Source of the DNA: a virus | Taxonomy: Duplodnaviria; Heunggongvirae; Uroviricota; Caudoviricetes | Length of the DNA stretch: 64,000 nt | Reading direction: 5' to 3' (one strand) | IMG/VR virus record: IMGVR_UViG_3300021387_001267 | Location: 1 to 64,000 of that record | Part shown: positions 854 through 46,660 of the stretch, piece after piece | Layout of the letters: each line of letters starts with the position of its first letter | Numbering within the stretch: the stretch's first letter is position 1 | Program-made: the position numbers and the translations under genes | Notes under the pieces: model-generated | Databases searched by the model: none | What the model was told of the DNA's origin: nothing | The model's input: only the letters and a program-made list of their open reading frames with translations

Positions 854-994
854 TTTTAGTACCTCCTAAAAGATTTAATGTTGGAGAATCCATTCTCCAA
901 TATACGAAATGCAGTTTTTGTGATTCGCGTCTCATTAATGCCAGACAGGCCTTCCCCGTGCACTGAGAAGGCCCATCTGAATATCATTTGCGTA

Positions 995-1873
995 TTACCA
1001 GGGATTCCGCTCGATAAAATCATCGCTTGGCGTCAGGAATCGTTCAAAATCAATAAAGCAGATACGCGGTTCTCCGGTCGTCGGATCAATATAATCATGC
1101 CAGTCAAGAATCTGATTCGGATGGATGAGATCATACTTTCCATTCATTCGGAATGCCGCATACTTTCCACACTTTCGGCTTCTTGTGTCAATATCCAGCA
1201 TATCATAGACTTCTGAAAGCTCAACATACTGATCTTCTTGCAGCCTTGTATTGAGTTCGGTAATCGCAGTGTTGACTGCAGTAACCGACGAATGGAATCT
1301 TGCCCCGGACCAGGTTTCAACAAACAGCGTGTTTCCATTCCCGGTCTCATGAATTCGATCGCCTTCGAGTACCGGATTTTTCTCGTAGTCATCGCGATGC
1401 CTTTGTTGCCTTGCCTTTTCGAGATCGCCTTTCTTCAGACTGTCCGATTCCTTATTCGAAACTCTGCCCTGAATTGCCGACAGTTCATTCTTGGCGCTCT
1501 GATACAGTGCTGTCATACCCGCAAGTCTCGACAGGTTGATCTTATTGGCGCCTGCTACAGCCAGCGTAGAAGCCCCTGCAACGGCCGCAGGACGCCACAT
1601 ATGCTCGGTAATGATTTTTCCTTTGTCAAGTCTGTCAAGAGGCTCCAGGCCGTTTTCTGCGCGTCTGGAGGCCTCCTGAGCGATTGCTTCTTCCACTTTC
1701 GGAACTTCCATAGCAGTCATAACACCTGCCGCCCAGAATCCCGTAATTCCGACGATTGTCAGAATCGTAGGAGCGTGCTGTTTCCCGACCTTGGCGATGG
1801 CATTGACCGTTTCAGGAATCGCACGGAAGTTAATATTTTTCAGGAAGTCAAAGCTGATCGAGAACTTACTCAT
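995..1873 (-). CDS. hypothetical membrane-anchored protein (paralog of 2641..3531)
   Basis: ORF track 995..1945; start moved to internal ATG (MSKFSISFD) preceded by GGGGGAAG SD; shares HAPTIL and C-terminal blocks with 2641..3531. Confidence 0.5.
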   Translation of the reverse strand: MSKFSISFDFLKNINFRAIPETVNAIAKVGKQHAPTILTIVGITGFWAAGVMTAMEVPKVEEAIAQEASRRAENGLEPLDRLDKGKIITEHMWRPAAVAGASTLAVAGANKINLSRLAGMTALYQSAKNELSAIQGRVSNKESDSLKKGDLEKARQQRHRDDYEKNPVLEGDRIHETGNGNTLFVETWSGARFHSSVTAVNTAITELNTRLQEDQYVELSEVYDMLDIDTRSRKCGKYAAFRMNGKYDLIHPNQILDWHDYIDPTTGEPRICFIDFERFLTPSDDFIERNPW

Positions 1874-2465
1874 GATCGTCTTCCCCCTTCTCGCGAATAT
1901 CGTTGCCATGGTCTTTGCTGTCTTCGGAGGATTTGTCATCCACAACTTTGGCTTCCTCCCGTCTTAGATCTCCTGCGAGAACACCGAGCTTTCCGATCAG
2001 CTCCGAGCAGTATTCTTTGACGTTGTTGGAATAAGATTTCTTCGCAATGCTTCCGAGCTGGCAGATGGCGCACTCAATTGCCGTCGCATCGCCGTTTGCC
2101 GCAATATCAAAGATCTTTGTAGCGGCATCGGTCTTTACGCTGTTGGAATACGAATTGTTCGCGCTCTCCGTCAGCGAAATGATTGCCACAACTTGCGGAG
2201 TCCGTTCCCAGCTGAGTTCGTCGATGTGCTTCGGTTTCTGCTTCTGCTCAGGTGCTGGAGCTTTCTTCTCTTCCTTCTTGCCGGTCTCCACGTGAATATC
2301 ATTTCCGTCGTAGTCAACCTTGACGCCGAACTGACCGAGCTCGTTGTTGATGGCGTTCAGGATCGCCATAGATCCAATGGCAAGTGCACACTTGGCAACA
2401 ATTTTTCCGACTTTCGTAGCGGCCTTCATAAACTTCTCATACTTCTGCGGATCGATTTTCTTCAT
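1866..2465 (-). CDS. hypothetical protein
   Basis: ORF track 199 aa; AAGGAGAA SD; stop overlaps downstream start. Confidence 0.5.
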   Translation of the reverse strand: MKKIDPQKYEKFMKAATKVGKIVAKCALAIGSMAILNAINNELGQFGVKVDYDGNDIHVETGKKEEKKAPAPEQKQKPKHIDELSWERTPQVVAIISLTESANNSYSNSVKTDAATKIFDIAANGDATAIECAICQLGSIAKKSYSNNVKEYCSELIGKLGVLAGDLRREEAKVVDDKSSEDSKDHGNDIREKGEDDHE

Positions 2466-2605
2466 GCGTTCGTTCTCCTTTTAATAATATAAATGATGAG
2501 GAGTGCCAGCAAAATCAGCACTCCTATGATTTTCAGGATCAGCCCTCCAAGAAATAGCGTGACCCTGAGCGACAATTGGAACAGAGAATATAATGCTGAC
2601 AGCAT
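2462..2605 (-). CDS. small hydrophobic membrane protein (47 aa)
   Basis: Not in track (<60 aa); ATG with AAGGAGAG SD; MLSALYSLFQLSLRVTLFLGGLILKIIGVLILLALLIIYIIKRRTNA; TGA overlaps the ATG of 1866..2465 (ATGA). Confidence 0.4.
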   Translation of the reverse strand: MLSALYSLFQLSLRVTLFLGGLILKIIGVLILLALLIIYIIKRRTNA

Positions 2606-2640
2606 GCCGGGACTCTCCTTTCAAGTTCTCCACTATGGCA

Positions 2641-3531
2641 TTACGTAGTCATCAGCGCAAGAGTACGCGTAACCGGCTCAAAGACGTTTCCTTCTTCGTC
2701 TTCAAATATAATTGCCATGACCTCATCACCCTCATAGAAGACGGATCCGAGCTTTGCCTTGAACGGGTGCAGTGGATTCCACTCTGCCACACCGCCGGCC
2801 GGACAGTCTGGAAGTCCGAGGAACCCTCTCCACTTGTTATAGTTCAGAACATGATTGCGTTTGATATATTCTTCTGCAAGTGCGATGGCGTTTTCAACAT
2901 CGTCAACAGTTCCCCAGAACGGAGATCCAAGATACGTGTCAAAGATCAGAATTTCGTTTTCTCCATCCGATTTCTTGCTGACGTCAAACGGCGTATCACC
3001 GTTCATTTTTTCATCGAGAACTTCTTTTCTGAAATCATTGCGAATCTCTTTGAACTCTTCGCTGCCGACCTTGTCCTTGACCGACTTTGCGAATTTCTTT
3101 AGTTTATCTTCGCTCGCTGCAAGCGCAACCGTGAGACCCGCAATCTTGCTTCCGCTGATGCGATTCGACGCAAAGCTGCACCCGAAGGACAAAAATCCGA
3201 ACAACGCAACATACTTATATGCCAGAGCGTACTGAACATCGCGGTTGATACGTGCTTTTCTTTCGAGATCCTTCATTTCTTCATCATCGATCTTTCCGGC
3301 TGTCCGGTCCTTCTGAATGCTGGCACTCTTTTCTTCGTAACGATTCCGGATCTTTACGACATTCTTTGATGCCTTGAACGCTGAAAAAATGCAGAGTCCG
3401 AGCGCAATACCGGATCCCGCGCACAGAATCGTCGGCGCATGATCATCAATAATTCGCTTAATGTCATTCAGTGTTCCGGGATTTGTAGACTTGACTTTGC
3501 CGAATGTTTTAAATACTTTTCCGAAATTCAT
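2641..3531 (-). CDS. hypothetical membrane-anchored protein (paralog of 995..1873)
   Basis: ORF track 296 aa; N-terminal TM; conserved blocks shared with 995..1873. Confidence 0.5.
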   Translation of the reverse strand: MNFGKVFKTFGKVKSTNPGTLNDIKRIIDDHAPTILCAGSGIALGLCIFSAFKASKNVVKIRNRYEEKSASIQKDRTAGKIDDEEMKDLERKARINRDVQYALAYKYVALFGFLSFGCSFASNRISGSKIAGLTVALAASEDKLKKFAKSVKDKVGSEEFKEIRNDFRKEVLDEKMNGDTPFDVSKKSDGENEILIFDTYLGSPFWGTVDDVENAIALAEEYIKRNHVLNYNKWRGFLGLPDCPAGGVAEWNPLHPFKAKLGSVFYEGDEVMAIIFEDEEGNVFEPVTRTLALMTT

Positions 3532-3561
3532 TCAATTTCCTCCTTTTTCAATTCTGTGTAT

Positions 3562-4026
3562 TCAGACTTCCCAATATGCTTCAAATGGCAGACAAGTTCC
3601 TTCCGGGCCAACTACTGTAACAGACTCGTGGATGTTATAGGTATGCCAGTCACAGCTTCTGTTGAACTCCTCTGGTGTCATACGTGTCATGCTGAATTTT
3701 AAATCGACCTTCCAGTCTTCACTTGGCGAATATCCATACTGATACCCAAAATCGGATAGCGCCATTCCCTGAAGTTCATACCAATCGCTGTAGCTGAGAA
3801 CATTCCCATTTTCGTACTCCTCAATGAACTTTTCATTGCATTCTTTTACCGCTTCATAGCTTGAACGAAACCAACGCCCTCCATAGCTGTCATAGAACAG
3901 CTCGTTGCCTCGTCCGGTCAGCTCAGCGGATGGCTGAAACTGATGCACGCTCTTCGGAACGCCGCATTTCGGCCAGATTCCGTTTTTTGACTTTGGCATT
4001 ACTTTTCTTACTACCGATGCTAACAT
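3562..4026 (-). CDS. hypothetical protein
   Basis: ORF track 3562..4050; start moved to MLASVV with GAAAGGAGGAC SD. Confidence 0.5.
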   Translation of the reverse strand: MLASVVRKVMPKSKNGIWPKCGVPKSVHQFQPSAELTGRGNELFYDSYGGRWFRSSYEAVKECNEKFIEEYENGNVLSYSDWYELQGMALSDFGYQYGYSPSEDWKVDLKFSMTRMTPEEFNRSCDWHTYNIHESVTVVGPEGTCLPFEAYWEV

Positions 4027-4107
4027 ATGTCCTCCTTTCACATGTCGCATTGAATCCTGAAATAAAACGAAGAGCAGCCGTAATTAGCCGCTCTCTACGT
4101 TAGAGAC

Positions 4108-4467
4108 TCATTCGGATTTGTTCTCTTCTGTTTCTTCTTCGGGATTCTGTTCAGGTTCTGCAGTCTCGGTTTCTTCTGCAGGTTCTCCAGCCTCATCTTC
4201 CTCGTATGCAACCTTGTAATTTTTGCAGAGATGCACAAAAGCTTTTCCATTTCCGACCATACGGCTGCCGAGTGCTGTTACGCCAACGATCTTGAATCCG
4301 TTTTTCATGTTGGAATTCAGGATCTGTTTGACACACAACGCATCGACAGCAATCGCACCGACCGACATAGCTCTTGCGGTCTGCAAGGATGCATTCGCGA
4401 TCCAATACTTTGGTGCTGACGAAGTAATGCGTTTTCCGCTGACGTGTAGAATATAATACTTTCCCAT
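4108..4467 (-). CDS. hypothetical protein with acidic C-terminal tail
   Basis: ORF track; start moved to MGKYYIL with AAAGGAGAAT SD. Confidence 0.5.
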   Translation of the reverse strand: MGKYYILHVSGKRITSSAPKYWIANASLQTARAMSVGAIAVDALCVKQILNSNMKNGFKIVGVTALGSRMVGNGKAFVHLCKNYKVAYEEDEAGEPAEETETAEPEQNPEEETEENKSE

Positions 4468-4601
4468 AATAGATTCTCCTTTCAATTTTTCCAAAAGATT
4501 CTTTTACTTACTATAGTCTCCATAATAGACCTTGCAGATTTTGTGAGAGGCCGAATGAAAAGAGAAGGGCCGTCGTAAAACAGCCCTTTGAATTCGATAG
4601 G

Positions 4602-4754
4602 TTAACTTTTTCCTTTTCCGGCTTTTGACATTGCCAATATCAATCCGAATACTGCTCCCATTGGTCCTGCCGCCCAGAAGCCTAATCCGCAAAAGATTGC
4701 AACAGTCAATACCTGTACCAAATATCCCTTATCGAATCCATTATTGTTTTCCAT
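4602..4754 (-). CDS. small membrane protein (50 aa)
   Basis: ORF track 4602..4793; start moved to MENNNG with AGAGGAGG SD; two hydrophobic segments. Confidence 0.45.
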   Translation of the reverse strand: MENNNGFDKGYLVQVLTVAIFCGLGFWAAGPMGAVFGLILAMSKAGKGKS

Positions 4755-4831
4755 AAACAGCCTCCTCTTATAATAGATTGACGTCTCTTTCAACGTCTCT
4801 ATTATAAGAGATGCAGAATCTGTGATCTGCC

Positions 4832-5224: not shown

Positions 5225-5290
5225 GTAATATCAATTCCTCAAAAACGAAAAGCAGAGCAACTGCAACGAGTCACTCTGCTTCCGGGAAGG

Positions 5291-5476: not shown

Positions 5477-5595
5477 AGTCAATACCTCCATATAATTAGA
5501 TTTAGAATTCATAGATTCCTTCCCAATATATGGATTGTAATTTTTGTGAGAAAAAGAGAGCAGCTGTATGCCGCTCCCCTTTTGAGATGATTCCT

Positions 5596-6003: not shown

Positions 6004-6066
6004 AAATCTGACCTCCTTATAAAAATTCAGGATATCATCCCATTACAGAAGGTGCAGATTATGTGA

Positions 6067-7087: not shown

Positions 7088-7088
7088 A

Positions 7089-7533: not shown

Positions 7534-7803
7534 TTACTCCTTTTTATAAAAGTCAGATTTCTCTGCATTATAGGAGTTGTGAAAATTACGATCTTTACAT
7601 TGCATATTGCACATCTCGTTATCGAGTTTGCAGAATGGAATATGAGCACCCATGTCCTGCTCCCATTCAACGCTTGGACAATTATTCACAAATTCGACAT
7701 CTGCCCTCTTTTGTTCGAGGTCAATGAGACTTATTTCTTTGCCTTGTTCTTGCACAGAACATAATAGAAGTAACATAATCATCCAGGCTTCGTCATTTGA
7801 CAT
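7534..7803 (-). CDS. hypothetical Cys-containing protein
   Basis: ORF track 89 aa; TGGAGGAT SD. Confidence 0.5.
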   Translation of the reverse strand: MSNDEAWMIMLLLLCSVQEQGKEISLIDLEQKRADVEFVNNCPSVEWEQDMGAHIPFCKLDNEMCNMQCKDRNFHNSYNAEKSDFYKKE

Positions 7804-8142: not shown

Positions 8143-8219
8143 GATTCTTCACTCCTTTAATAAAAATATAGTACTCCATTAAAGGAACTGTAATTATTGC
8201 GATTCTTCTTTCTTTTTAT

Positions 8220-17200: not shown

Positions 17201-17220
17201 AAATCTTCACCTCCATTAAA

Positions 17221-17271
17221 GGAGCTGTAAAACTTGCGAAAAGTAAGAAGACCTGTAAATTACAAGTCCTC
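17221..17271 (-). promoter_or_regulatory. representative copy of the conserved intergenic module (terminator hairpin GAAGACCTGTAAATTACAAGTCCTC, T-run, box TTTTCGCAAGTTTTACAG, SD hairpin CTCCtttaatGGAGGTG)
   Basis: More than 30 copies across 900-46650; see findings. Confidence 0.6.
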
Positions 17272-17573: not shown

Positions 17574-17625
17574 GTTTTCTCCTTTCTGAAATATCTTCAT
17601 TAGAGAAGCTGTAATTCTTGCGAAA

Positions 17626-19543: not shown

Positions 19544-19574
19544 TACATTCTCCTTTCTGGAATATCTCCATTAA

Positions 19575-19629
19575 GGAAGCTGTTGAAATTGCGAAAAATT
19601 TTAGAGGACCTGTAAGTTACAGATCCTCT
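19575..19629 (-). promoter_or_regulatory. conserved intergenic module copy (terminator AGAGGACCTGTAAGTTACAGATCCTCT, box TTTTTCGCAATTTCAACAG, CTTCCTTAATGGAG)
   Basis: Same architecture as 17221..17271. Confidence 0.6.
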
Positions 19630-19835: not shown

Positions 19836-19876
19836 TTTTATTCACCTCCTACTAAGGAGGCTGTAATTATTGCGAA

Positions 19877-27522: not shown

Positions 27523-27705
27523 CTAGATGCCAGTTTCTCCTTTCTGAATTCGCGACAGGTAACAATCTTTACAAATCTCAGTCGTCCCTTGCAAATGAAT
27601 AATGTCCGCGACGTTGATTTCCGGGCGCGAACATTCAACGGTTAATACCACCTTGAACCAAACGCCCATTTCCTTTCCGCAAATATCGCACTTATGAATT
27701 ATCAT
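27523..27705 (-). CDS. zinc-ribbon protein
   Basis: ORF track 60 aa; CDICG...CKDC. Confidence 0.45.
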   Translation of the reverse strand: MIIHKCDICGKEMGVWFKVVLTVECSRPEINVADIIHLQGTTEICKDCYLSRIQKGETGI

Positions 27706-28335: not shown

Positions 28336-28336
28336 A

Positions 28337-29055: not shown

Positions 29056-29096
29056 TTTCGCCTCCTTCTATTAAGAAGGCTGTAATTATTGCGATC

Positions 29097-29495
29097 TTAC
29101 TTCTGCTTCGGTCCAAGAATGACAAGGCCAGGACTATCCATTTCCTTAACAAGAGACTCGGCTTCTTCTAGAGTGTCAAAACCAGCGATCATGGCTCCTT
29201 TGCAAACATCGCCGTGCGGACTACGATAATTTTCATCAATAACCAGATAGTCTTTGTTCCATTCGTCAACGCCTGTTTCCTTATACTTGTCTTCCAGCTC
29301 AGCAATCACATAGTCCTCATATGACTTCTTCCAGTCGACATCTACGTCCTTATTCGATCGAACGACATCGGCAGACCACAAAATAGCCCGCTCCAGCTCC
29401 TCTGTTGTAGCTCCGTTAACCGCCATATTGGTAATCAGATCAACCGCCCTCTTCATTGCACTTTTTCTTTCATCGACCACATAGTTTTTGCTCAT
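29097..29495 (-). CDS. hypothetical protein
   Basis: ORF track 132 aa; AAGGAGAATAAAGC SD. Confidence 0.5.
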   Translation of the reverse strand: MSKNYVVDERKSAMKRAVDLITNMAVNGATTEELERAILWSADVVRSNKDVDVDWKKSYEDYVIAELEDKYKETGVDEWNKDYLVIDENYRSPHGDVCKGAMIAGFDTLEEAESLVKEMDSPGLVILGPKQK

Positions 29496-30554: not shown

Positions 30555-30598
30555 AAACATTACCTCCATAATTTAATAATCTTCTATTATGGAAGTTG

Positions 30599-30955
30599 TT
30601 AATTTTGCGATCCTAATTCTTCTTCTGTTTCCTGCTGTGCCAACATATTATTATCACTGACATCGCAGTTTTCCAAAATACTCCAGAGTTCCGGTGCGAG
30701 CTTTGACTTCTTATTATTCTGCACAAGCTCGTTGATCTGCCCTCTTAGCATCAGATACTTTGTTTTCCAATAGCTCTTAGCGCTGTCTGTTCGGATATGA
30801 GGCATCGTGAGATCAAATATCATACGATACTCTTCTTCCGAAAGACCGAATCGGCGCTTGATTATACCAACAGTTTTTGATGGATTCTTCAGAATATAAT
30901 CCATGACAGCATTTATAGTTTTAATTTCATCAGGATCGAGAAGTGTCAGATTCAT
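30599..30955 (-). CDS. hypothetical protein
   Basis: ORF track 118 aa. Confidence 0.5.
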   Translation of the reverse strand: MNLTLLDPDEIKTINAVMDYILKNPSKTVGIIKRRFGLSEEEYRMIFDLTMPHIRTDSAKSYWKTKYLMLRGQINELVQNNKKSKLAPELWSILENCDVSDNNMLAQQETEEELGSQN

Positions 30956-33152: not shown

Positions 33153-33242
33153 AATAAATACCTCCTATAATGAATTAATAAAGTTCTTTCTTCTTCACTA
33201 TAGGAGGTGCAATTTTTGTGATTCTGTTATTTAATCAAGCAA

Positions 33243-33864: not shown

Positions 33865-33974
33865 GATAGAATCCTCCTTAATAATATTATTCCCATTATA
33901 TGAAATGCAGTTTTTGTGATTCATTTAATACAGGAATAACAGAAGCAGACTGTAATAGCCTGCTTCCATTGTAC

Positions 33975-34343: not shown

Positions 34344-34455
34344 TTTTAAAGTCTCCTTTCAGATATAAATATTTGATTTCCCATTAAATGCATTGCAGTT
34401 TTTGTGAAAAAAAGAAAGCGACTGTAGAAGCCGCCTTCTTCGAGGAGTAGAGGGA

Positions 34456-34746: not shown

Positions 34747-34875
34747 TGTATTATCTCCTTTTCTAGTAAGTTTTAGATCTTATTTTGATCCATTCTCCTC
34801 ACTATAAAAGGTGTAATTTTTGTGAGACAAAAAAAATAATAGCTGTTAAAATAGAGAAAATGTACTATTTTTCAT

Positions 34876-35007: not shown

Positions 35008-35063
35008 TCTCTCTCCAATATATAAATTGCAGATTCTGTGAAAAAAGAAAGCCCGTGTAAATA

Positions 35064-35279: not shown

Positions 35280-35350
35280 ATTTAAAACCTCCTTTTTGTT
35301 TCTATTATAAAGAATGCAAAAATTGCGAAAAAAAAAAGAAAGACCGGTTA

Positions 35351-35623: not shown

Positions 35624-35704
35624 CTCCTTTCCATTAAGCACCTTGTAAAATCGGTGAAAAAAGAAGCGACTGTAAAAGCCGCCTTCTTCTGATCCGTAAG
35701 TGGA

Positions 35705-36067: not shown

Positions 36068-36135
36068 TTTTGTTACCTCCTTAAAAATATAGTTTTTCCA
36101 CTAAATGCAGTGTAAATTTTGTGATTCTAATAAAA

Positions 36136-36441: not shown

Positions 36442-36543
36442 TACCATATCCTCCTTATAGTTTCTTCACTATACGAAGTGCAATTCATGCGATTGCGTAA
36501 AAAGAGACCCATTGCAGGTCTCTAAAGCGCTTACTTTATCGAA

Positions 36544-36747: not shown

Positions 36748-36853
36748 TTTGATTTTCCTTTCGATTGATGTAAGCTTTACGCTCCATTATATAAACTGCA
36801 ATTTCGGTGAAAGAGATAGTCCGTGCAATTCACACAGACTATCTGAAAGAATT

Positions 36854-37069: not shown

Positions 37070-37168
37070 ATTTATTGCCTCCTTTAATTATAATAATCCT
37101 TTCCATTAAAACAGATGTAATTTTTGTGAAGTTAAAAAGAAAATAGTTGTAAAAGAAGAGAGCCGCTG

Positions 37169-37354: not shown

Positions 37355-37470
37355 TTCTTTTTCCTCCATATAGTAAAGTTTAATTTGCTTATTATCTTCA
37401 CTATAGGAGCTGTATTTTCTGTGATCACAAATAAAAAAGGAAGACTCTGCAGAAATCTTCCTTATGCGAC

Positions 37471-37683: not shown

Positions 37684-37776
37684 TTTGATTAAACCTCCTG
37701 TGTTTTTAATTCCTTTCCAATATATAAGTTGTAAAATTGATGAAAAAAGAGAGCCGTTGTAGACTCTCTTTTCGAA

Positions 37777-38300: not shown

Positions 38301-38365
38301 TCTGGAATATCTCCATTAAAGAAACTGCAGAATACGTGAAAAAAAAGAAGACGCAGTTTTTACGT
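38301..38365 (-). promoter_or_regulatory. conserved intergenic module copy (terminator AAGAAGACGTAAAAACTGCGTCTTCTT, T8, CACGTATTCTGCAG, TTTCTTTAATGGAGATATTCCAGAAAGGAG)
   Basis: Same architecture. Confidence 0.6.
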
Positions 38366-38621: not shown

Positions 38622-38674
38622 TTCAACACCTCCACTATAGAGGATGCAATTTTTGTGAAAAAGAGACTAGCTGT

Positions 38675-38995: not shown

Positions 38996-39053
38996 TGTTC
39001 ATCACCTCATTAATTAGGTTGCAAAAATCGTGAAAAAAGAAGCTCGCTGTATT

Positions 39054-39383: not shown

Positions 39384-39451
39384 AGATTTACCTCCATAGT
39401 TTTATTTCTATCACAGAGGTTGTAATTTTTATGAAAAAAAGAAACTAGCTG

Positions 39452-39823: not shown

Positions 39824-39871
39824 TAAAATACACCTCCTATAATATAAGGTGTATTTTTTGCGAAAGCATGG

Positions 39872-40189
39872 TTACCCTCTCATCTGGCTCAGCTTCCAGA
39901 AGAATATCCGGTGCTGATACCAAAGTTCAGGAGGTATACTACTCCCCTCAACTGTGACAAACCGAAGAAGATTCCGGTCTATCGAATTCGCGCATTCCTC
40001 AATCATAGTAATATTTCGAATCAGGTCTGCTCTGCGAATACCATCTCGTGAGGTTACATCTCCTCTTCCATCCCAGCCGTCAGACTTTTCATACTGAGAT
40101 TTCCAGGTCTCGTACTGATAACAAAACTGTTGCAGTTCACGGAAGCGATGTATACCCAGGTCATATTGAGTTTTTCGTTTAGTCGCCAT
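39872..40189 (-). CDS. hypothetical protein
   Basis: ORF track 105 aa; overlaps the upstream HTH gene by ~11 nt. Confidence 0.45.
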   Translation of the reverse strand: MATKRKTQYDLGIHRFRELQQFCYQYETWKSQYEKSDGWDGRGDVTSRDGIRRADLIRNITMIEECANSIDRNLLRFVTVEGSSIPPELWYQHRIFFWKLSQMRG

Positions 40190-40451
40190 CGTGTTGCCCC
40201 GTCGGAAGACCTAAAATATAACGAAGGTCCTGATTCGAAACATTTGCCATACGTAGGCAATTGGCAATAATTGAGAGTGGTGCCCGTCTAAAATATTCCA
40301 CCTTTCTGCGATAACGCCAAAGACTCGAAGGATTACACCCGGCTTTTTCAGCCAAGTACTCCATAGATTTCCGATTCGATCTGAGGTATTCATGGAGTAC
40401 GGCATCGAACCGATCCATGCGTTTCTCTTCGTCTGAAAATACATTTTTCAT
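40179..40451 (-). CDS. HTH DNA-binding protein
   Basis: ORF track 40179..40505; start MKNVFSDEE with AAAGGAGAT SD; SMEYLAEKAGCNPSSLWRYRRK fits a helix-turn-helix. Confidence 0.5.
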   Translation of the reverse strand: MKNVFSDEEKRMDRFDAVLHEYLRSNRKSMEYLAEKAGCNPSSLWRYRRKVEYFRRAPLSIIANCLRMANVSNQDLRYILGLPTGQHDGD

Positions 40452-40653
40452 TGCTGCAATCTCCTTTTTACAGTTGATTGCTGGCCAGCAGATACAGTAT
40501 ATCACGAGAAAGCTGAAAGTAAATCACGATTGTTACCATTTGTTTCCAGCTTGCAATAAATCATTCAGTCCTGCACGACGAAAAAAGATTGCAATTGTGA
40601 AATATAATTGTGCAGTTAGAATAATCCAACTAAATAAAAAAAAGAAAGGCAGC

Positions 40654-40926
40654 TTATTCGGCTGCCAGTCTTTCCAGGATTTCCATTAATTGGTGCTTAT
40701 TCACATAATGGCAAAGTCCGTTGTCTCGAACATAAATCTTTCCACCAGCATAGAAACTGACCCGACAATAAGGCAGATACAGATCTTTGTATTTGTTCGG
40801 ATGCTCTTTTTTCTTCTTATAGGCATTTCGAGCGCAAACATAAATCTGCTCTTTGTCTTCGAATCCGGTCACCTCATATGGAAGATCCAGTTCTTTCAGT
40901 TTTTCCAACAGCATTTCTTTGTTCAT
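40654..40926 (-). CDS. hypothetical protein (alternative longer form with N-terminal TM starting at 41061)
   Basis: ORF track 40654..41061; internal ATG (MNKEMLLEKL) has TGGAGGTTTTC SD inside a conserved box. Confidence 0.45.
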   Translation of the reverse strand: MNKEMLLEKLKELDLPYEVTGFEDKEQIYVCARNAYKKKKEHPNKYKDLYLPYCRVSFYAGGKIYVRDNGLCHYVNKHQLMEILERLAAE

Positions 40927-41122
40927 ATGAAAACCTCCAATATAAATTTTAGTTCCTATAATAAGAACTGTAATTCCGGTGAAAAACAAAATAATCGTAA
41001 ATATCATGAAAAAGTTACCGACTGGAGCGATTCTGTGAGATTTAAATGAACATTTCATCATTCAATGATCTCCCATTGGCTCCAGCCGGCATGTTTTTAT
41101 GCTATTTTACTTCCGTTTTAAT

Positions 41123-41542
41123 TTATGTAAACAGATCACCTCTTTTCTCTCGTAGACTTACATAGTCATATGGAGTTAAGATAAAGTGATCCAATACTTT
41201 GATTCCGAGCACTTGCCCGGCTCGAACTAGTAACTCGGTCGCTTCGATATCTTCGTGCGATTCCTGTAGAGTTCCGCCAGGATGATTATGCGCAACGAGT
41301 ATTGAAACAGCGTTCTGCAGCAATGCCGTTTTAAATACACTGCTTACAGTAAAAGGTACAGAACAAGTTGAGCCGATTCCTGCGATGTGGTAGCTGATTG
41401 GTCGTCCTTGGGCGTCCATGTTAACCGAAATGAAATACTCCCGATCGGCGTCAGCAAATTGTTCTTGCAATATTCTTCCTGCATCCCAGGTATTTCGTAT
41501 GGGCGAGGCTGATGCGATGGCCCGTACTTCTTGAAGGTACAT
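41123..41542 (-). CDS. RadC-like JAB/MPN domain protein
   Basis: ORF track 139 aa; LVAHNHPGGTLQESHEDIEATELLVRAGQVLGIKVLDHFIL matches the RadC/UPF0758 JAMM-like core (HNHPSG...S..D...T..L....LGI.LLDH). Confidence 0.75.
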   Translation of the reverse strand: MYLQEVRAIASASPIRNTWDAGRILQEQFADADREYFISVNMDAQGRPISYHIAGIGSTCSVPFTVSSVFKTALLQNAVSILVAHNHPGGTLQESHEDIEATELLVRAGQVLGIKVLDHFILTPYDYVSLREKRGDLFT

Positions 41543-41576
41543 TCGAGTTTGTACCTCCGGAATTCTATAGTCGCCT

Positions 41577-41888
41577 TTAGTCCACCGTCCTTAGAAAATA
41601 CTGCAGCTCTTCACCAATTAAATTATCCAGTGCATACTGATCTGCTTTCTTCCAGAGTTCATTATAAAGCTCTGTCAGCTCTTCTGCTTTCTTCGTTCCG
41701 GCGCCGTCCCAGTACCAGATGTTCCAGTTCAAAACCATAACAAGCTCAGTAAGATAAATATAATTCTTTTTCCAGGCTTTCATGGCTCTATTAAAGGTAT
41801 CATGAACGGCGTCTGCTCCAAATTTTTCTGCGATCATAAAATCATCCCAGAAAGTGGTCTGAGGCTTGTACCCGGTCATTTCACACAT
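41577..41888 (-). CDS. hypothetical Trp-rich protein
   Basis: ORF track 103 aa; start uncertain (weak SD). Confidence 0.4.
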   Translation of the reverse strand: MCEMTGYKPQTTFWDDFMIAEKFGADAVHDTFNRAMKAWKKNYIYLTELVMVLNWNIWYWDGAGTKKAEELTELYNELWKKADQYALDNLIGEELQYFLRTVD

Positions 41889-42039
41889 TTGCTCGAAAAA
41901 TGCTATTAAACATCATCCTTTCATAAATTATTTTAGTCCATAGAAATCATCTCCACTCACCTTCCATATATTAATAAAGCCCTCCCGCGGTCGACTTCAC
42001 GAGAGAGCTTTAGCTACACCTGACGATTTATAACGTCAT

Positions 42040-42477
42040 TCATTTGGCATCGCCACGCTTTCCAAGAGAGCGAATCTCATCGAATGCTTTTTCAAGCTCA
42101 GCATCAAATTCTTCTGCTGGTACTTCCGTATATTCTTGTTTAATGCATTCGACTGGATCTTCCGCATCCGAAGCACGTGTAAATACATCACGAATAATTA
42201 GTCTTCCAACATCCGCTCGAATAGTCGGATCATTGCAGCAGAATAGAATCGGAAGTCGGTACTCGTTGAATGCTGTGTATGATTTATTATATTGAACTGG
42301 CGGAATGTCTATAATTCGAAAATAATTATCGTCTTCGTCTTTAAATGACATCCCAACCAATTTTTCGAGTTTATTCTGTAGTTCTTTGATACGATTGCCA
42401 CGTAACTTCTCATATTCAATTTTGAGATCTGTTATTTTATTGCTAATTTCTTTTATTTTGATTTCCGTATCGCTCAT
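42040..42477 (-). CDS. hypothetical coiled-coil protein
   Basis: ORF track 145 aa; AAAGGAGAATAAAT SD. Confidence 0.5.
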   Translation of the reverse strand: MSDTEIKIKEISNKITDLKIEYEKLRGNRIKELQNKLEKLVGMSFKDEDDNYFRIIDIPPVQYNKSYTAFNEYRLPILFCCNDPTIRADVGRLIIRDVFTRASDAEDPVECIKQEYTEVPAEEFDAELEKAFDEIRSLGKRGDAK

Positions 42478-42527
42478 TATTTATTCTCCTTTTACTTTCA
42501 TACTTTAAATCGTTCGAGAAACTTCAC

Positions 42528-42546
42528 ACAAAATATCCCGTGTGCA
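42528..42546. repeat. 19-bp direct repeat CCGTGTGCATTTTCGTGTG, copy 1 (candidate integrase arm-type site)
   Basis: Exact copy at ~42760-42778; the two flank the tRNA-fragment core beside the integrase gene. Confidence 0.5.
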
Positions 42547-42684
42547 TTTTCGTGTGCAGAAATTTCACTCAGAAATGCAAAATAGCTCCCAGATCTGAAA
42601 GCGACGTCTCAGACCTGAGAGCTCAAAATGACAGTAAAATAAAGGAAAATCCCAGAACCTCAACGAGGCCTGGGACTCTCAATC

Positions 42685-42725
42685 TGGAGCGGATGATGGG
42701 AGTCGAACCCGTCATATGAGCCCAT
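42685..42725 (-). other. 3' fragment of a tRNA gene (T-arm and acceptor 3' strand, GGGTTCGACTCCCATCATCCGCTCCA on the minus strand): candidate attP core
   Basis: T-loop TTCGACT flanked by GGG/CCC, then a 7-nt acceptor strand, discriminator and CCA. No complementary 5' acceptor strand or D-arm upstream, so it is a fragment, as is typical of a phage attachment core. Confidence 0.55.
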
Positions 42726-42759
42726 CACCCACCCAGTAATTACTGACGCTCTTCAATCG

Positions 42760-42778
42760 CCGTGTGCATTTTCGTGTG
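42760..42778. repeat. 19-bp direct repeat CCGTGTGCATTTTCGTGTG, copy 2
   Basis: See 42528..42546. Confidence 0.5.
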
Positions 42779-42909
42779 AAGAAGAATTAAGATGATGCTC
42801 AATTATACCAATTGCACACGATAGGCCTTCGTTCCATCCATAATCAAATTGGTATTCTGGACGCTCTTCTCGCTGCTCTAGTATTTCCTTAATTATCTCA
42901 TTCAATATC

Positions 42910-43962
42910 TCATCCATTATACAGTTTCTCCATTTTTTCGTCAATAATCTGCCCGAATTCGTCCTCCTTGTCTCTTAATGTATGCTGATAGACGTTCTGT
43001 AACATATTTTCGGTCTTATGCCCCATGCGCTTCATAGAGTACTTATTTGGAACTCCAAGTGCATGAGCTTCAGATGCAGCAAAATGTCGAAGATCATGGA
43101 ACCTGCATGGCTCAACTCCGGCTTTCTTACAGATGCTGACGAAATTCTTGTAGATCGTAATGTCAGCATATGGGCAAATATAATTTTTCGCGATTTCTTC
43201 TTTGGTCTTTCCAGTATCTTCTAGTTTCAGCCTCTCGACGATAATCAAATGTTGAATTGTTCCAGGACACTTAATCCAGCGATCGCCAGAAACTGTTTTC
43301 GTCCCCTTTTCAATGCTCTTCCCTTCCGAATCACGAACAACGGCCGTATGAATGTGGAGTTTACCTTCTTTCAGATCCTCAAACTTCAATCCACGAACCT
43401 CGCTCATTCTAAGACCCATCCAGGATCCGAGCAGAATCGAAAGCTCATATTTAGTACCCTTCACAGCGTTCCAGACTTTCTGCATTTCTTCTTCGGTAAA
43501 TATGCGCATTTCAGTCTGCTGCTTTTCTGGCAAATGAGTATGCGTAGAGAAGTTCGGTCTAAATTCTTCAAGAACAGCATTCAATAATCCATGAGCATTT
43601 CGAATTGTCTTCGGCGACTTTCCATTCAGTGCTTCGTTCGATACGGAAAGCTGAATATCACCCTGGGTCAGATCCGAAATATTAATGTCCATAAGATCCT
43701 GAAGATAGTTCTTTCGGACGGACTTATACCCACGAATTGTACTCGAAGACAGAACACCGGACTTTTCAGTTATATACTGATCCATAGCACGGCCCACGGT
43801 CATCGGAAGTCGTTTTTCCATTTCTGCCCCTGCGAAAATTTGCTTAGCCTTTTCCTGAGCTTCCTTCTTTGTAGCTCCGGTACAGGAATATCTGTGTCCA
43901 TCTATCTGGATTTGAATTCGCCAATTGCCAGATTTAAGTTTCGTAGCTTTAGGCAATTTCAT
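42910..43962 (-). CDS. int: tyrosine-type site-specific integrase
   Basis: ORF track 42910..44019; start moved to MKLPKATKL (AAAGGAGG SD; the first ATG abuts the SD). C-terminal catalytic stretch FHDLRHFAASEAHALGVPNKYSMKRMGHKTENMLQNVY carries the R..H..R...Y signature; N-terminal SAM-like core-binding domain. Confidence 0.85.
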   Translation of the reverse strand: MKLPKATKLKSGNWRIQIQIDGHRYSCTGATKKEAQEKAKQIFAGAEMEKRLPMTVGRAMDQYITEKSGVLSSSTIRGYKSVRKNYLQDLMDINISDLTQGDIQLSVSNEALNGKSPKTIRNAHGLLNAVLEEFRPNFSTHTHLPEKQQTEMRIFTEEEMQKVWNAVKGTKYELSILLGSWMGLRMSEVRGLKFEDLKEGKLHIHTAVVRDSEGKSIEKGTKTVSGDRWIKCPGTIQHLIIVERLKLEDTGKTKEEIAKNYICPYADITIYKNFVSICKKAGVEPCRFHDLRHFAASEAHALGVPNKYSMKRMGHKTENMLQNVYQHTLRDKEDEFGQIIDEKMEKLYNG

Positions 43963-44398
43963 TGCCATCCTCCTTTGTAACACGAATATTTGGATGAAAG
44001 TCGGGTCTATACTCGGCAAGAACTTTCAGAATAAAGGTTTTATAACCTTTCAGAGTTTTTACGCTAAGGCCTTTTGCGATTTCCGCATCGAAAGCCTGCT
44101 GAAGAAGCTCTTCAGTAAGTTTATCGAGCCAAATAAGCCACAGACAACTAAGATGATGGTCGATAATGTTCTCATAACCTTTAATTGTCGAAGTCTTGAG
44201 TTCCCCTCGTTTAGAGTCAATATACTTTACGGCTGCCTCCATAAAGCAAAGACGCTCCGGTTCTTCCATTTTGATTTCTTCTGATTGACCTTTAACAAGA
44301 TCTTTTGCCATTTCAAGTCGGTCGATCACTTCATATTTTCTCTTTTCAATCATAATCGTGACATGGTACTTGCAAATATTAAAGTTGCAGATTTTCAT
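43949..44398 (-). pseudogene. truncated paralog of the integrase N-terminal (core-binding) domain; integrase remnant or small accessory protein
   Basis: ORF track 149 aa; YIDSKRGELKTSTIKGYENIIDHHL...KGLSVKTLKGYKTFILKVLAEYRPDFHPN aligns with the integrase N-terminus YITEKSGVLSSSTIRGYKSVRKNYL...NGKSPKTIRNAHGLLNAVLEEFRPNFS; no catalytic domain. Confidence 0.5.
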
Positions 44399-44434
44399 TT
44401 TTTATAAGTTCCTTCCTTATTATAATATAGTATT

Positions 44435-44632
44435 TTAATCGAAATAAATGTTATCGACGCCCAGAAGAGTAATCATGTCAAATGGTGTAAATAGACCTCT
44501 TTCGTGCATCGCTTCTTGAAAAGCCCTATAAGCCATAGCCTCACGTTCTCTTTTTGATGGAGGCTTTGGCTTTGGCGGAATTTCTCCATTTTTTGCAGCA
44601 ATCGCTTTTGGATTATACTTATGTTGGCCCAT
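44435..44632 (-). CDS. hypothetical protein
   Basis: ORF track 44435..44674 (TTG); start moved to MGQHKYNPK with AGGAGGTTCACGG SD to resolve overlap with the Lar-like gene. Confidence 0.4.
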   Translation of the reverse strand: MGQHKYNPKAIAAKNGEIPPKPKPPSKREREAMAYRAFQEAMHERGLFTPFDMITLLGVDNIYFD

Positions 44633-44810
44633 CCGTGAACCTCCTATTCCAATTTTTGATGTCATCTTCGTCAACTACCACATTTTGAACTAAGTTTGCT
44701 AACGGGCACCATTTTTCGTGTTCTCCGGAATACAAAAAATCATCATCGTCTTTACTGTATTCACAGCCGCAAAACGGGCAAGGCTTTATTACATTCGTAC
44801 TGTACCTCAC
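44619..44810 (-). CDS. Lar-family restriction-alleviation-like zinc-finger protein
   Basis: ORF track 44619..44825; GTG start coupled by GTGA overlap to 44807..45568 with GGTGGAG SD. The KPCPFCG...EHEKWCPLANL...IKNWNRR stretch matches the Lar-family N-terminal KPCPFCGG and C-terminal WNrR pattern. Confidence 0.55.
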   Translation of the reverse strand: MRYSTNVIKPCPFCGCEYSKDDDDFLYSGEHEKWCPLANLVQNVVVDEDDIKNWNRRFTDGPT

Positions 44811-45568
44811 TCCGAGTATCTCCACCAGGTATAAGCCGGCGCATTCGGATCATTTGCAAGATAGATTCCGTGCTGCGTATAAATCGTATAGACATAATCA
44901 GATCCAACCGGCTCAGGCAGGCCTTGCACCTCGCGATCATTCTTAAGCCGTTCTGACTTCATCGCAAGATTAAAGTAATAGTCCTGTACCGGATTCGTAT
45001 CATATGATGCAATAAACTGTCCTTCTTTGAATGCAATCTCATCAATCGTCATGCCAAGATACATTTTATTCTTCAGCCGATTATCAACGCACTGATACAA
45101 TGTCATAAAATCAGCGTCGCTGTAATTGTACTTTTCGATGAAATTGCGACTGCCATAACCGAGCTTTGCCTTTACTTGAGCATTCGCCTTCATCTGATTC
45201 TCAAGCGACTGCTCTGCCGCCTTACGATCTGCTTCCTGCTGCGCCAGAAACGCCTGATGCTCTGCGTCTTTCTGTTCGGCGACTGCTTCGGCATATGCAA
45301 CTGCGGTCTTCTCGGTATGGATGTTCACACCCCAGATACAGAATGATGCGAACAAGCCGAGAATCAATACCACAATCAACCAGTTATACATGATCGGAAA
45401 CCACGGATACTTCTTTCCAAGCTCTCGCGTCTCTTTGGCCTGCCCCTCGAGAACGCTCTTCCAGACTTTCCAATCCGTGATATACTCCCAGACCATCTTC
45501 CATTTTGATTCTTTAACTGCGCTAATTTCACTATGTTTCGGCCGATAAATTCTAATCGCTTCGTCCAT
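44807..45568 (-). CDS. membrane protein with Ala/Gln-rich coiled coil
   Basis: ORF track 253 aa; TM (FPIMYNWLIVVLILGLFASFCIWGV). Confidence 0.5.
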   Translation of the reverse strand: MDEAIRIYRPKHSEISAVKESKWKMVWEYITDWKVWKSVLEGQAKETRELGKKYPWFPIMYNWLIVVLILGLFASFCIWGVNIHTEKTAVAYAEAVAEQKDAEHQAFLAQQEADRKAAEQSLENQMKANAQVKAKLGYGSRNFIEKYNYSDADFMTLYQCVDNRLKNKMYLGMTIDEIAFKEGQFIASYDTNPVQDYYFNLAMKSERLKNDREVQGLPEPVGSDYVYTIYTQHGIYLANDPNAPAYTWWRYSE

Positions 45569-45570
45569 GA

Positions 45571-46173
45571 TTACAATTCTCCTTTTTCAAGCTTTTTAAA
45601 TAGTTCGTCGATTCTCTGGCGCTCTCTTTGTCTGGCCCTCTTCTGAGCCTGTTTATAGTATTTCTTCTGCTTCGGCGTTGACTTCGGCAGTTTCTTCCAA
45701 TCGTTTTCGATAATTTTCTTCGCTTTATCATGATCGGAGATATACTGCATGATTCGTCCAATGTTCGTTGTTTCCTTAACATCCGACTGCCTGTGGAACT
45801 CCCTGCGCATCAGAATCTTATCGGGAAGCTCTGTATCGAAATGTCCTCGGTTAAGATGCCAGAGCTTATAGGTTTCAACCGGTCCTCGAATAATTACCTT
45901 CCAAAAGCCATATGACGTACGAAAACAAATTCCGCGATCGACCCGGTCATATGAGATCAGCAGTCCATCCTTACTCCTGCTGCAATACGCTGGATCGTCA
46001 CGTAGCTTCAGATACAGCCCATGAATCCCACCGCAGTATGAACACGCATGGTATCCTCGCTCTTTTGCGTTTTTCTCGGAAATATAGCGACGATATTTTT
46101 TGACCATGCGCTTTGCATACGGACAGGATTCTTCGTGATAGATCATGTCTTTCGACTTTTTACTGATGACCAC
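45571..46173 (-). CDS. zinc-finger protein with basic C-terminal tail
   Basis: ORF track 200 aa; CPYAKR...CSYCGG motifs. Confidence 0.5.
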   Translation of the reverse strand: MVISKKSKDMIYHEESCPYAKRMVKKYRRYISEKNAKERGYHACSYCGGIHGLYLKLRDDPAYCSRSKDGLLISYDRVDRGICFRTSYGFWKVIIRGPVETYKLWHLNRGHFDTELPDKILMRREFHRQSDVKETTNIGRIMQYISDHDKAKKIIENDWKKLPKSTPKQKKYYKQAQKRARQRERQRIDELFKKLEKGEL

Positions 46174-46289
46174 ATTGAATTCACCTCTTCAATTTTGATT
46201 TTGAAAAACGTCAACCGTGGAAATTTTTAAAAAAGAAAGAGAGCCGCTGTGCATGTGCTATTAACAGCGACCCTCCGTCTCCTTTCAAC

Positions 46290-46424
46290 TTACTTTATGT
46301 CTATGTATCCGCCTCCTCCTGATAAAATATAGTTGTTTGCGCCAATCACTCCTTTCGCCAGTGAATCAATAAATTCACTATGATTCTCAATCAATTGCCT
46401 CAAACCAACGATTATTTTCTTCAT
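46290..46424 (-). CDS. tiny hypothetical protein (44 aa)
   Basis: Not in track; ATG with AAAGGAGTTTTCTGA SD; MKKIIVGLRQLIENHSEFIDSLAKGVIGANNYILSGGGGYIDIK. Confidence 0.3.
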   Translation of the reverse strand: MKKIIVGLRQLIENHSEFIDSLAKGVIGANNYILSGGGGYIDIK

Positions 46425-46496
46425 TCAGAAAACTCCTTTTCATAAGTTTTAGTTGCTCTTCTATTAAGACAATTGCAAATTTTGCGAATACAAAAA

Positions 46497-46530
46497 AAAT
46501 AACGGGCATCGAACCCGCATCTCCGTTTCC
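46497..46530 (-). terminator. rho-independent terminator whose hairpin mimics a tRNA T-arm (GCGGGTTCGATGCCCG plus T8)
   Basis: Hairpin plus an 8-T run on the minus strand; a tRNA-like D-arm string lies upstream but no cloverleaf closes. Confidence 0.45.
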
Positions 46531-46660
46531 GTTTCCGGTGTGCTACCAAATTGCACCATATCTCTCTATTATAATAATTGCAAATTTTGCGATTATCGTG
46601 ACCTTGCGAAAAAAAATAAGGGCTGTAAATCATACGATCCGCAGCCCTTGCCTTTAAATA

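Follow-up and report, generated by a model that had tools for sequence, protein, structure and literature searches.

Promoters read by phage-encoded RNA polymerases (RNAPs) are a well-known kind of regulatory element, with examples in T7, N4, phiKZ/AR9 and P23-45. In P23-45, a separate conserved motif for each phage RNAP is found immediately before many (pre-)early start sites, and dedicated terminators lie between the transcription units (10.1101/2022.12.01.518664). YonO of the Bacillus prophage SPbeta is a phage-encoded single-chain RNAP, which is independent of rifampicin and whose promoter sequence was undefined in 2017 (PMC5467207). The stoperators of Cluster A phages are asymmetric sites of 13-14 bp, which occur in one orientation and in tens of copies, in or beside intergenic gaps (PMC13313380). 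Here, we analyse a repeated intergenic element in a stretch of 64,000 nucleotides from a tailed phage of the Caudoviricetes (IMG/VR record IMGVR_UViG_3300021387_001267, positions 1 to 64,000; the whole stretch is referred to as the window). A first-pass annotation of this DNA had noted the element as a conserved box upstream of small genes. We propose that the element is probably the promoter of a phage-encoded single-chain two-barrel (QDE-1/YonO-class) DNA-dependent RNAP with N- and C-terminal helix-turn-helix (HTH) domains.

Results

A 14-bp box and a hexamer at fixed spacing

An iterated position weight matrix (PWM) gave, on the gene strand (minus) of the window, the consensus TCRCAAAAWTTRCA (14 bp), followed by 5 nt, TWTAWT and RRRR. 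The element, defined as the 25 bases of the 14-bp box, the 5-nt spacer and the hexamer, was found at 34 sites, all on the minus strand, with no site on the plus strand and none in 20 shuffles. A looser core written for the plus strand, TGYA-N7-YGA, matched 27 times against 1.46 expected, and 24 of the 27 matches were on the plus strand. The sites are listed with box, spacer (lower case), hexamer and PWM score.

899 to 923, minus strand: TCACAAAAACTGCA tttcg TATATT, 26.6
4522 to 4546, minus strand: TCACAAAATCTGCA aggtc TATTAT, 34.4; absent from the first-pass list
4801 to 4825, minus strand: TCACAGATTCTGCA tctct TATAAT, 30.4
5525 to 5549, minus strand: TCACAAAAATTACA atcca TATATT, 42.7
6042 to 6066, minus strand: TCACATAATCTGCA ccttc TGTAAT, 30.3
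7567 to 7591, minus strand: TCGTAATTTTCACA actcc TATAAT, 28.2; overlaps the 3' end of the preceding reading frame; absent from the first-pass list
8178 to 8202, minus strand: TCGCAATAATTACA gttcc TTTAAT, 29.4
17215 to 17239, minus strand: TCGCAAGTTTTACA gctcc TTTAAT, 42.2; Shine-Dalgarno (SD) sequence GGAGG abuts the hexamer
17599 to 17623, minus strand: TCGCAAGAATTACA gcttc TCTAAT, 35.7
19570 to 19594, minus strand: TCGCAATTTCAACA gcttc CTTAAT, 35.6
19851 to 19875, minus strand: TCGCAATAATTACA gcctc CTTAGT, 32.3; SD abuts the hexamer
29070 to 29094, minus strand: TCGCAATAATTACA gcctt CTTAAT, 29.8
30586 to 30610, minus strand: TCGCAAAATTAACA acttc CATAAT, 32.9
33197 to 33221, minus strand: TCACAAAAATTGCA cctcc TATAGT, 36.9
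33895 to 33919, minus strand: TCACAAAAACTGCA tttca TATAAT, 42.6
34383 to 34407, minus strand: TCACAAAAACTGCA atgca TTTAAT, 44.5; after a terminator
34801 to 34825, minus strand: TCACAAAAATTACA ccttt TATAGT, 39.8
35017 to 35041, minus strand: TCACAGAATCTGCA attta TATATT, 44.4; after terminator 35074-35048
35304 to 35328, minus strand: TCGCAATTTTTGCA ttctt TATAAT, 41.5; after terminator 35364-35339
35633 to 35657, minus strand: TCACCGATTTTACA aggtg CTTAAT, 33.8; after terminator 35684-35664
36100 to 36124, minus strand: TCACAAAATTTACA ctgca TTTAGT, 40.5
36468 to 36492, minus strand: TCGCATGAATTGCA cttcg TATAGT, 30.2
36786 to 36810, minus strand: TCACCGAAATTGCA gttta TATAAT, 37.8
37105 to 37129, minus strand: TCACAAAAATTACA tctgt TTTAAT, 41.1
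37400 to 37424, minus strand: TCACAGAAAATACA gctcc TATAGT, 37.0; after terminator 37463-37437
37719 to 37743, minus strand: TCATCAATTTTACA actta TATATT, 40.2
38315 to 38339, minus strand: TCACGTATTCTGCA gtttc TTTAAT, 41.1; after terminator 38371-38345
38634 to 38658, minus strand: TCACAAAAATTGCA tcctc TATAGT, 41.2; ATG 12 nt past the hexamer, SD abuts the hexamer
39009 to 39033, minus strand: TCACGATTTTTGCA accta ATTAAT, 28.3; after terminator 39062-39043
39410 to 39434, minus strand: TCATAAAAATTACA acctc TGTGAT, 37.5; after terminator 39463-39442
39839 to 39863, minus strand: TCGCAAAAAATACA cctta TATTAT, 33.2
40958 to 40982, minus strand: TCACCGGAATTACA gttct TATTAT, 37.5
46463 to 46487, minus strand: TCGCAAAATTTGCA attgt CTTAAT, 40.2; directly after the T-arm/U-run of a tRNA-like gene
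46568 to 46592, minus strand: TCGCAAAATTTGCA attat TATAAT, 31.2; precedes the tRNA-like gene

The spacer is 5 nt long in every copy and variable in sequence. Positions 1, 2, 13 and 14 of the box are invariant, as are T3 and T6 of the hexamer (100%), and the least conserved hexamer position is position 2, which is A in 56% of the sites (0.61 bit). The first base past the hexamer is a purine at all 34 sites (G 71%, A 29%), and the four positions past the hexamer are purines in essentially all of them. These positions belonged to the scoring matrix, so that the pooled purine frequencies are somewhat circular; the purines are nevertheless also there at window sites that were picked with the box alone.

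The sites span 899 to 46592, and the PWM scan found no box in the tail and lysis genes (47-64 kb) or in the upstream extension L134. Judged against the called genes of the overlapping ENA contig (ERZ28612940, run SRR873601), 33 of the 34 sites are intergenic, and the exception, at 7591, overlaps the last codons of the preceding open reading frame (ORF). The next start codon lies 9-54 nt past the hexamer end at 31 sites. Half of the sites (17) come directly after a hairpin and T-run, compared with 5% of background positions, and the remainder lie 0-20 nt past a stop codon and have no terminator. The first-pass annotation had reported the repeat at more than 30 sites, which agrees with the PWM count, and each of its 32 coordinates falls within 21 nt of a PWM site; sites 4546 and 7591 are additional. 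Its literal consensus YTGYAAWWTTTNGTGARAAAAAG, however, has no match in the window, even at 3 mismatches, as the variable terminator T-run had wrongly been built into it. The TNTAWT element that it placed downstream is present, at a fixed 5 nt from the box, although its conservation is not that of a sigma-70 -10 element. A distance of 20-50 nt from box to SD or ATG had been given; box 46592 precedes a tRNA-like gene and not an ORF. The claim that the box always follows a terminator T-run holds for 17 sites, the others coming shortly after a stop codon.

The boxes fall into two subtypes that are grouped along the window. Copies of TCAC…TGCA lie mostly at 0.9-6 kb or 33-41 kb, those of TCGC…TACA, the family consensus, at 8-31 kb. 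The split could reflect promoter classes or local duplication. The box-rich array of small genes (6000-46000) has a GC content of 38-42%, compared with 47-49% at 1-4000 and 48000-64000.

The element in other phages and in bacteria

A scan of IMG/VR for box and hexamer returned at least 119 stretches, and among the matches listed, at least 77 loci have three or more PWM sites. Many of these loci carry 6-15 sites within ~10 kb, nearly always on one strand, at a locus GC of 33-57%. The 582 pooled sites among the matches listed give tTCGCAaaAatTACA-N5-TATAATG, and the family consensus of the box is nCGCRAAAWWWACA. By comparison, the genomes of 185,579 bacterial and archaeal species (one genome per species) gave 12 hits, mostly on contigs of 44-62 kb in metagenome-assembled genomes of Oscillospiraceae, Lachnospiraceae, Ruminococcus or Clostridia. 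This near-absence indicates that the motif belongs to phages and is not a class of host promoter.

The recurrent ORF families of the box loci are DUF6353 (43 of the 77 loci listed), phrog_4079, a holin family and phrog_11237. No other protein family recurs as often in the box-rich regions as DUF6353, whose actinophage members carry the annotation of membrane protein. A GenBank search with the recurrent families led to Faecalibacterium phage FP_oengus (hereafter Oengus) and to many phages of Arthrobacter, Gordonia, Streptomyces, Rhodococcus and Lactococcus. The layout of Oengus is that of the window, i.e. an integrase, a small HTH gene with phrog_11237, gapped small genes and three DUF6353 genes, followed by replication genes. 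The first-pass annotation had suggested a search for the same box in related phages, and it is present in full in three cultured phages and in its 3' half, with the hexamer, in a fourth:

Faecalibacterium phage FP_oengus (Bacillota): RCGCGAAAAATRCA-N5-CTTTAT-GGAAG
Rhodococcus phage ReqiPoco6 (53% GC, Actinomycetota): TCGCAnAAAwwACA-N5-TATAAT-GAGACCCCTAYGAAAGGA, 13 copies, all on the gene strand
Arthrobacter phage Mudcat (45% GC, Actinomycetota): TCGCGwAAATTACA-cgggc-TATAAT, six copies
Lactococcus phage P118 (33% GC, Bacillota): TTTTACA-yaccc-TATAAT-GA kept, upstream half of the box different

Mudcat and P118 carry the element and have no annotated integrase or repressor. The cultured box phages have been described as a 'supercluster' of Actinobacteria and Firmicutes phages, in a report that does not mention promoters (10.1101/842583). 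In ReqiPoco6, positions 40923-50271 (locus L140), the leader GAGACCCCTAYGAAAGGA between hexamer and ATG is nearly identical at ten sites, and it appears to be a 5' untranslated region cassette that travels with the promoter.

A predicted two-barrel polymerase accompanies the box

All cultured box phages examined encode a protein of ~900 aa, which is gp94 in Mudcat and gp55 in Oengus. In NCBI records it goes under either of two names, 'RNA-dependent RNA polymerase' and 'HTH DNA-binding protein'. The motif SGADFDGD is invariant in two alignments of this protein. Pfam placed an HTH domain at the C terminus above threshold, weak hits resembling sigma-70 region 4/3 at both ends and a sub-threshold RNA-dependent RNA polymerase (RdRP) hit over the DFDGD region; a profile of the family compared with the PDB by sequence gave faint beta' hits only. 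We modelled the protein with AlphaFold from 95 homologues (predicted local distance difference test 80.5, predicted template modelling score 0.66). At the top of a fold search with the model were QDE-1 (E 7e-8), the non-virion RNAPs of P23-45/P74-26 (8f72/8f5m; E ~2e-5) and plant RDR2, and the next matches after these two-barrel polymerases were Rpb1 and bacterial beta'. The ~900-aa protein is accordingly modelled, and predicted, as a two-barrel RNAP, and a published HHpred analysis agrees with the polymerase identity (10.1101/842583).

The family is large. GenBank has it in 250 phage records, which are nearly the same records as those with phrog_4079; it is also encoded by at least 582 IMG/VR stretches, and each of two protein-database searches found at least 8,000 members at E <= 1e-20. 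The association with the box was seen from both sides. The polymerase gene is also present in 11 loci that were selected by the box alone, and 71 of 80 loci selected by the polymerase alone carry same-strand boxes, with 173 same-strand sites compared with 11 on the opposite strand. In each of the nine loci that lack a same-strand box, the sequence upstream of the polymerase gene is shorter than 1 kb. Where at least 1.5 kb of upstream sequence is available, a box lies upstream of the polymerase gene in every case (67 of 67), at a median distance of 903 bp (interquartile range 899-924), i.e. at the front of an endonuclease-exonuclease-polymerase operon. In cultured phages, these operon boxes are at 27683 (Oengus), 73858 (ReqiPoco6) and 55496 (Mudcat). 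The element tracks the polymerase gene, not a repressor gene. Some database entries label the protein as structural: the GenBank note on ReqiPoco6 refers to the Lactococcus 1706 homologue in this way, and the ReqiPoco6 protein is a 'Structural protein' in UniRef.

The start site and the fit to sigma-70

The family loci with boxes contain 31 tRNA or tRNA-like genes on the same strand, and for 17 of the 31 a box is found no more than 80 nt upstream. The 5' end of the tRNA is 0-7 nt (median 2) past the hexamer in 15 of the 17 cases. The window has one such gene:

46494 to 46565, minus strand: tRNA-like gene, Rfam RF00005 at 39.6 bits (gathering 29), E 3.4e-7, beginning 2 nt past the hexamer of box 46592

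This distance places the start site in the window at or before hexamer+2. In addition, the SD of about seven window sites directly adjoins the hexamer, with the start codon 12-18 nt past it. With a start 7 nt downstream the SD would be lost. The purines at the four positions past the hexamer are what an initiating and early transcribed sequence would show. These lines of evidence suggest that transcription starts at the purine right after the hexamer and not 7 nt downstream, closer to the hexamer than the 5-10 nt past TNTAWT that had been expected in the first-pass annotation.

The same annotation held that the box does not fit canonical sigma-70 spacing, and this was borne out. No -35 element is seen in the PWM of the 34 sites, in which the information upstream of the box is 0.1-0.4 bit per position; the best -35 fit, TTCACA, would leave a spacer of 14 bp and not of 16-18 bp, and a scan of the window with the sigma-70 consensus did not rank the element sites as good promoters. 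The hexamer itself varies in the relatives, being CTTTAT in Oengus and TTTTAT in the copy at the RNAP operon. The weak position 2, these variants and the start-site evidence argue that the hexamer is not a sigma-70 -10 element; it would rather behave as does the AT-rich segment that melts, at -6 to -1, in promoters of single-subunit polymerases.

The tRNA-like gene at 46494-46565 surfaced only under permissive filters, and over the whole window ARAGORN reported 0 tRNAs and Rfam at its gathering threshold 0 hits. The gene has a shortened anticodon region and a U-run as its 3' acceptor strand, and the T-arm and U-run together look like an intrinsic terminator just before box 46487. Many box-fused tRNA-like genes of the family (in loci L006, L009, L011, L053, L055, L056, L064, L086, L106 and L107, and at 2935-3006 in Oengus) are reported by ARAGORN as 'tRNA-???' with 'anticodons' of 2 or 4 nt, i.e. 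with odd anticodon loops. These genes may form a family of phage tRNA-like RNAs that are not decoding tRNAs.

Other genes of the window

The window is part of the genome of a metagenomic tailed phage, to which the ENA contig above corresponds. It holds tail and tail-fibre genes, lysis and integration genes and ~100 small genes that have no known function. Capsid, terminase, replication, sigma and RNAP genes were not found in the window, which indicates that the genome reaches well past it. GenBank phages gave no match to 20 kb of the window by megablast. The principal other features are as follows.

995 to 4026, minus strand: three tandem DUF6353 paralogues
29097 to 29495, minus strand: ORF of 132 aa
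39872 to 40189, minus strand: phrog_11237 gene (105 aa)
40179 to 40451, minus strand: HTH-like gene (90 aa)
40496 to 40523, minus strand: sigma-A-like extended -10 promoter TTTACT-16-TGaTATACT (a contrast to the element), in a box-free gap before the HTH-like and phrog_11237 pair
42584 to 42780, minus strand: tRNA 3'-end-like fragment (…gggttcgactccc…)
42910 to 43962: tyrosine integrase
46661 to 46999: holin
50382 to 52004: endolysin
53076 to 62335, minus strand: tail module

The integrase block (46173-41123) and the pair of HTH-like and phrog_11237 genes (39872-40523) are box-free and hold the best sigma-70-like matches of the window; the extended -10 promoter at 40523-40496 lies in a gap of 200 bp. 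The pair has counterparts in gp02/gp03 of Oengus, beside the integrase, and its products are candidate lysogeny/lysis regulators expressed by the host RNAP. The phrog_11237 protein was also considered as a general reader of the box and was rejected, as it is confined to the Oengus-like branch.

Residues ~579-648 of the Oengus RNAP resemble the 132-aa ORF (tblastn E 5e-6, 37% over 71 aa), which has no Pfam hit and, judged by this similarity, may be a stand-alone copy of a polymerase sub-domain. The tRNA 3'-end-like fragment lies just downstream of the integrase and could be an attP core; a hairpin with a 17-bp stem (42584-42623) follows it, and there is no tRNA model hit at 42584-42780. The tail module is 29-48% identical to that of Ca. 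Heliusvirales NatCom_3357. This closest relative of the tail proteins has neither the box nor the polymerase layout, so that tail homology does not track the element, and the match of a tail module to a box-free phage indicates, at the level of sequence, module exchange between phage groups.

Discussion

Proposed mechanism of transcription from the element

We propose that the element is read by the predicted two-barrel polymerase and not by the host RNAP. Transcription would start (+1) at the purine right after the hexamer. The box TCRCAAAAWTTRCA would occupy about -25 to -12, where it would be contacted by the terminal HTH domains of the polymerase. A spacer of fixed length and variable sequence would separate the box from TWTAWT at -6 to -1, the presumed melting region, and the initial transcript would be rich in purines, with G or A at +1 and purines to +4. 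In the accessory/early region of 45 kb, each small gene or short operon appears to have its own copy of the promoter, often right behind the intrinsic terminator of the previous unit, which suggests that the region is transcribed as many short units that are started independently. In the window's own phage, the polymerase gene would lie beyond coordinate 1. As in N4, crAss-like phages and P23-45, the enzyme may enter with the virion, and it would then transcribe the box-driven genes early in infection. Labour would be split, with the host RNAP transcribing the lysogeny and regulatory genes and the phage RNAP the accessory/early array.

The box, its spacing and the hexamer are the same in phages from two host phyla, with host GC from ~35% to >60%, which points to a reader that is phage-encoded and conserved, and the polymerase with its own HTH domains is, from the sequence comparisons, the only candidate reader with the right distribution. 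The first-pass annotation had offered a phage-specific promoter or a site for a phage sigma or transcription factor. The promoter is supported, and the fold and co-occurrence point to the phage two-barrel RNAP as the likely reader in place of such a factor.

Several observations weigh against our proposal. The activity of the ~900-aa protein is a prediction. The window does not contain the polymerase gene; a search of IMG/VR and JGI metagenomes for the contig of the window gave no match, and those ENA and Logan contigs on which window proteins occur terminate within the window. Few genes are common to the window and Oengus, and the tail module of the window derives from a different phage group. 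A polymerase operon behind its own promoter would need either virion delivery or a basal host-driven start, and virion delivery may occur to judge from the database annotation, which is the source for it. Finally, TATAAT followed by GGAG or GGGA resembles a sigma-A -10 element with a strong discriminator, which is able to work without a -35.

This last resemblance leads to the principal alternative, in which the element is a host sigma-A promoter that lacks a -35, with the hexamer as -10, GGAG as discriminator and the box as the site of a phage activator or appropriation factor similar to T4 MotA/AsiA. The hexamer consensus is indeed TATAAT in most lineages, and the GG(A/G) past it resembles the GGGA discriminator, which supports -35-independent promoters; the first half of the box would lie near -30, the position of the T4 MotA box, and the early genes of most phages use the host RNAP. 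However, the hexamer is least conserved at position 2, where sigma-70 would need its key A(-11), and in Oengus and in the RNAP-operon copies this position is T. A start 7 nt on would also fall inside the acceptor stem of the tRNA-like genes, given their position 0-7 nt (median 2) past the hexamer. Actinomycetota and Bacillota differ in promoters and factors, yet their phages share the element, and it is practically absent from bacterial genomes. MotA, AsiA and sigma-like proteins were not found with Pfam and PHROGs among ~45 window and cluster proteins, a set that covers a minority of the small window ORFs; for the window, these scans covered sigma factors, RNAPs and activators and found none. 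We therefore consider a host sigma-A promoter unlikely.

More improbable still is that the box is an operator-type site for a phage DNA-binding regulator, which would silence or modulate transcription, like a stoperator, and not start it. Its 14 bp, asymmetry, single orientation, dozens of copies and intergenic position do match the description of stoperators (PMC13313380), and the window encodes an integrase and an HTH-like protein. The box is, on the other hand, tied by a rigid 5-nt link to a hexamer with invariant T.T..T and to a start purine, which is not a stoperator property. It frequently lies behind terminators, where re-initiation is needed, and directly before tRNA genes. It is also present in Mudcat and P118, which have no annotated integrase or repressor, and follows the polymerase gene and not a repressor gene in its distribution. 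There is very little to be said for an RNA-level signal (a processing site, a 5'-end stabiliser or an anti-SD/SD translation element) or for an N4-type DNA hairpin promoter. The pyrimidine-rich spacer and the purine-rich positions past the hexamer allow many copies to be drawn as a hairpin with the hexamer as loop, but the 30 consecutive Watson-Crick pairs compare with 22.4 +/- 5.2 under the null, and 198 of 2000 column shuffles reached or exceeded the observed value (p ~0.1), so that the apparent stem is explained by base composition. The box is outside the mature RNA where a tRNA follows, and half of the copies are immediately downstream of terminators. The suggestion of an RNA-processing signal in the first-pass annotation is unlikely for the same reasons, i.e. 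the position upstream of mature tRNA 5' ends and often right after terminators. A sigma-54-like or CRP-like box was rejected by inspection, as the box is no palindrome and its half-sites are wrongly spaced.

Significance and comparison with known systems

The polymerase family has so far been predicted from sequence only (10.1101/842583), and the present analysis ties a proposed promoter to it, none having been found in the literature searched. That literature contained no description of the element or of the promoters of this family; intergenic repeats may have been mentioned in earlier genome papers, on phage 1706 (2008) and on ReqiPepy6/Poco6 (2011). Taken at its fullest, our proposal would be that this is the first promoter consensus for a large, cross-phylum two-barrel family, that the enzyme is sigma-free and reads the box through HTH domains like sigma region 4, that its catalytic core melts TWTAWT and initiates at the purine that follows, and that it is delivered with the virion and makes expression of the whole 45-kb accessory region independent of the host RNAP. 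We advance this combination of claims tentatively, and would not be surprised if parts of it failed.

The element would provide a precise recognition sequence for a predicted enzyme of hundreds of cultured phages and of thousands of sequences from gut and rumen metagenomes; the polymerase is found in phages of Arthrobacter, Gordonia, Streptomyces, Rhodococcus, Lactococcus and Faecalibacterium. It would serve as a simple sequence marker for early/accessory transcription units in these phages, and in-vitro transcription and start-site mapping can be designed from it. If the enzyme is self-sufficient, the two would form a compact orthogonal polymerase/promoter pair for both Gram-positive phyla. 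A phage-read promoter would also account for the low-GC, host-unlike regulatory regions in phages of high-GC hosts.

Compared with known systems, the inverted repeat of the N4 virion RNAP hairpin promoter is not seen here, the complementarity being within shuffle expectation. The stoperators of Cluster A (and CA) actinobacteriophages are repressor sites that have no fixed partner hexamer, whereas the present box stands at a rigid distance from a hexamer and start purine, and a polymerase gene accompanies it. T4 middle promoters are similar in that a box replaces the -35 upstream of a TAnnnT-like hexamer, in many copies before small early/middle genes. They differ in that the start in the present element is placed at the hexamer end, its hexamer is not sigma-70-like and it is conserved across phyla. 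YonO belongs to the same broad class as the predicted polymerase, but it drives one late operon, compared with dozens of promoters in an early/accessory region here, and the yonK-yonN gap of SPbeta (P_YonO) contained no box above background (best score 4.5, with chance hits near 7).

The promoters of T7, T3 and SP6 are, like the element, phage-specific, ~25-30 bp long and repeated before many transcription units, are absent from the host, and have an AT-rich TATA-like stretch followed by a +1 purine and a purine-rich initial sequence. The T7 promoter ends in ...TATAGGGAGA, and the present element in TATAAT GGAG. The enzymes differ, as those of T7, T3 and SP6 have the right-hand fold and the one proposed here a two-barrel fold. 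T7-type promoters are specific through the whole stretch, whereas the present element is bipartite with a variable 5-nt spacer.

Of the characterised cases, P23-45 comes closest. The sequences of its motifs bear no relation to the present element, and they were mapped by cappable-seq and chromatin immunoprecipitation, whereas the present element was deduced from sequence; the polymerase proposed here has terminal HTH domains and no tape measure fusion, unlike those of P23-45. The virion (gp96) and non-virion (gp64) RNAPs of P23-45 are nevertheless of the same phage-encoded two-barrel class, and the non-virion enzyme is among the best structural matches of the polymerase that we propose as the reader of the element.

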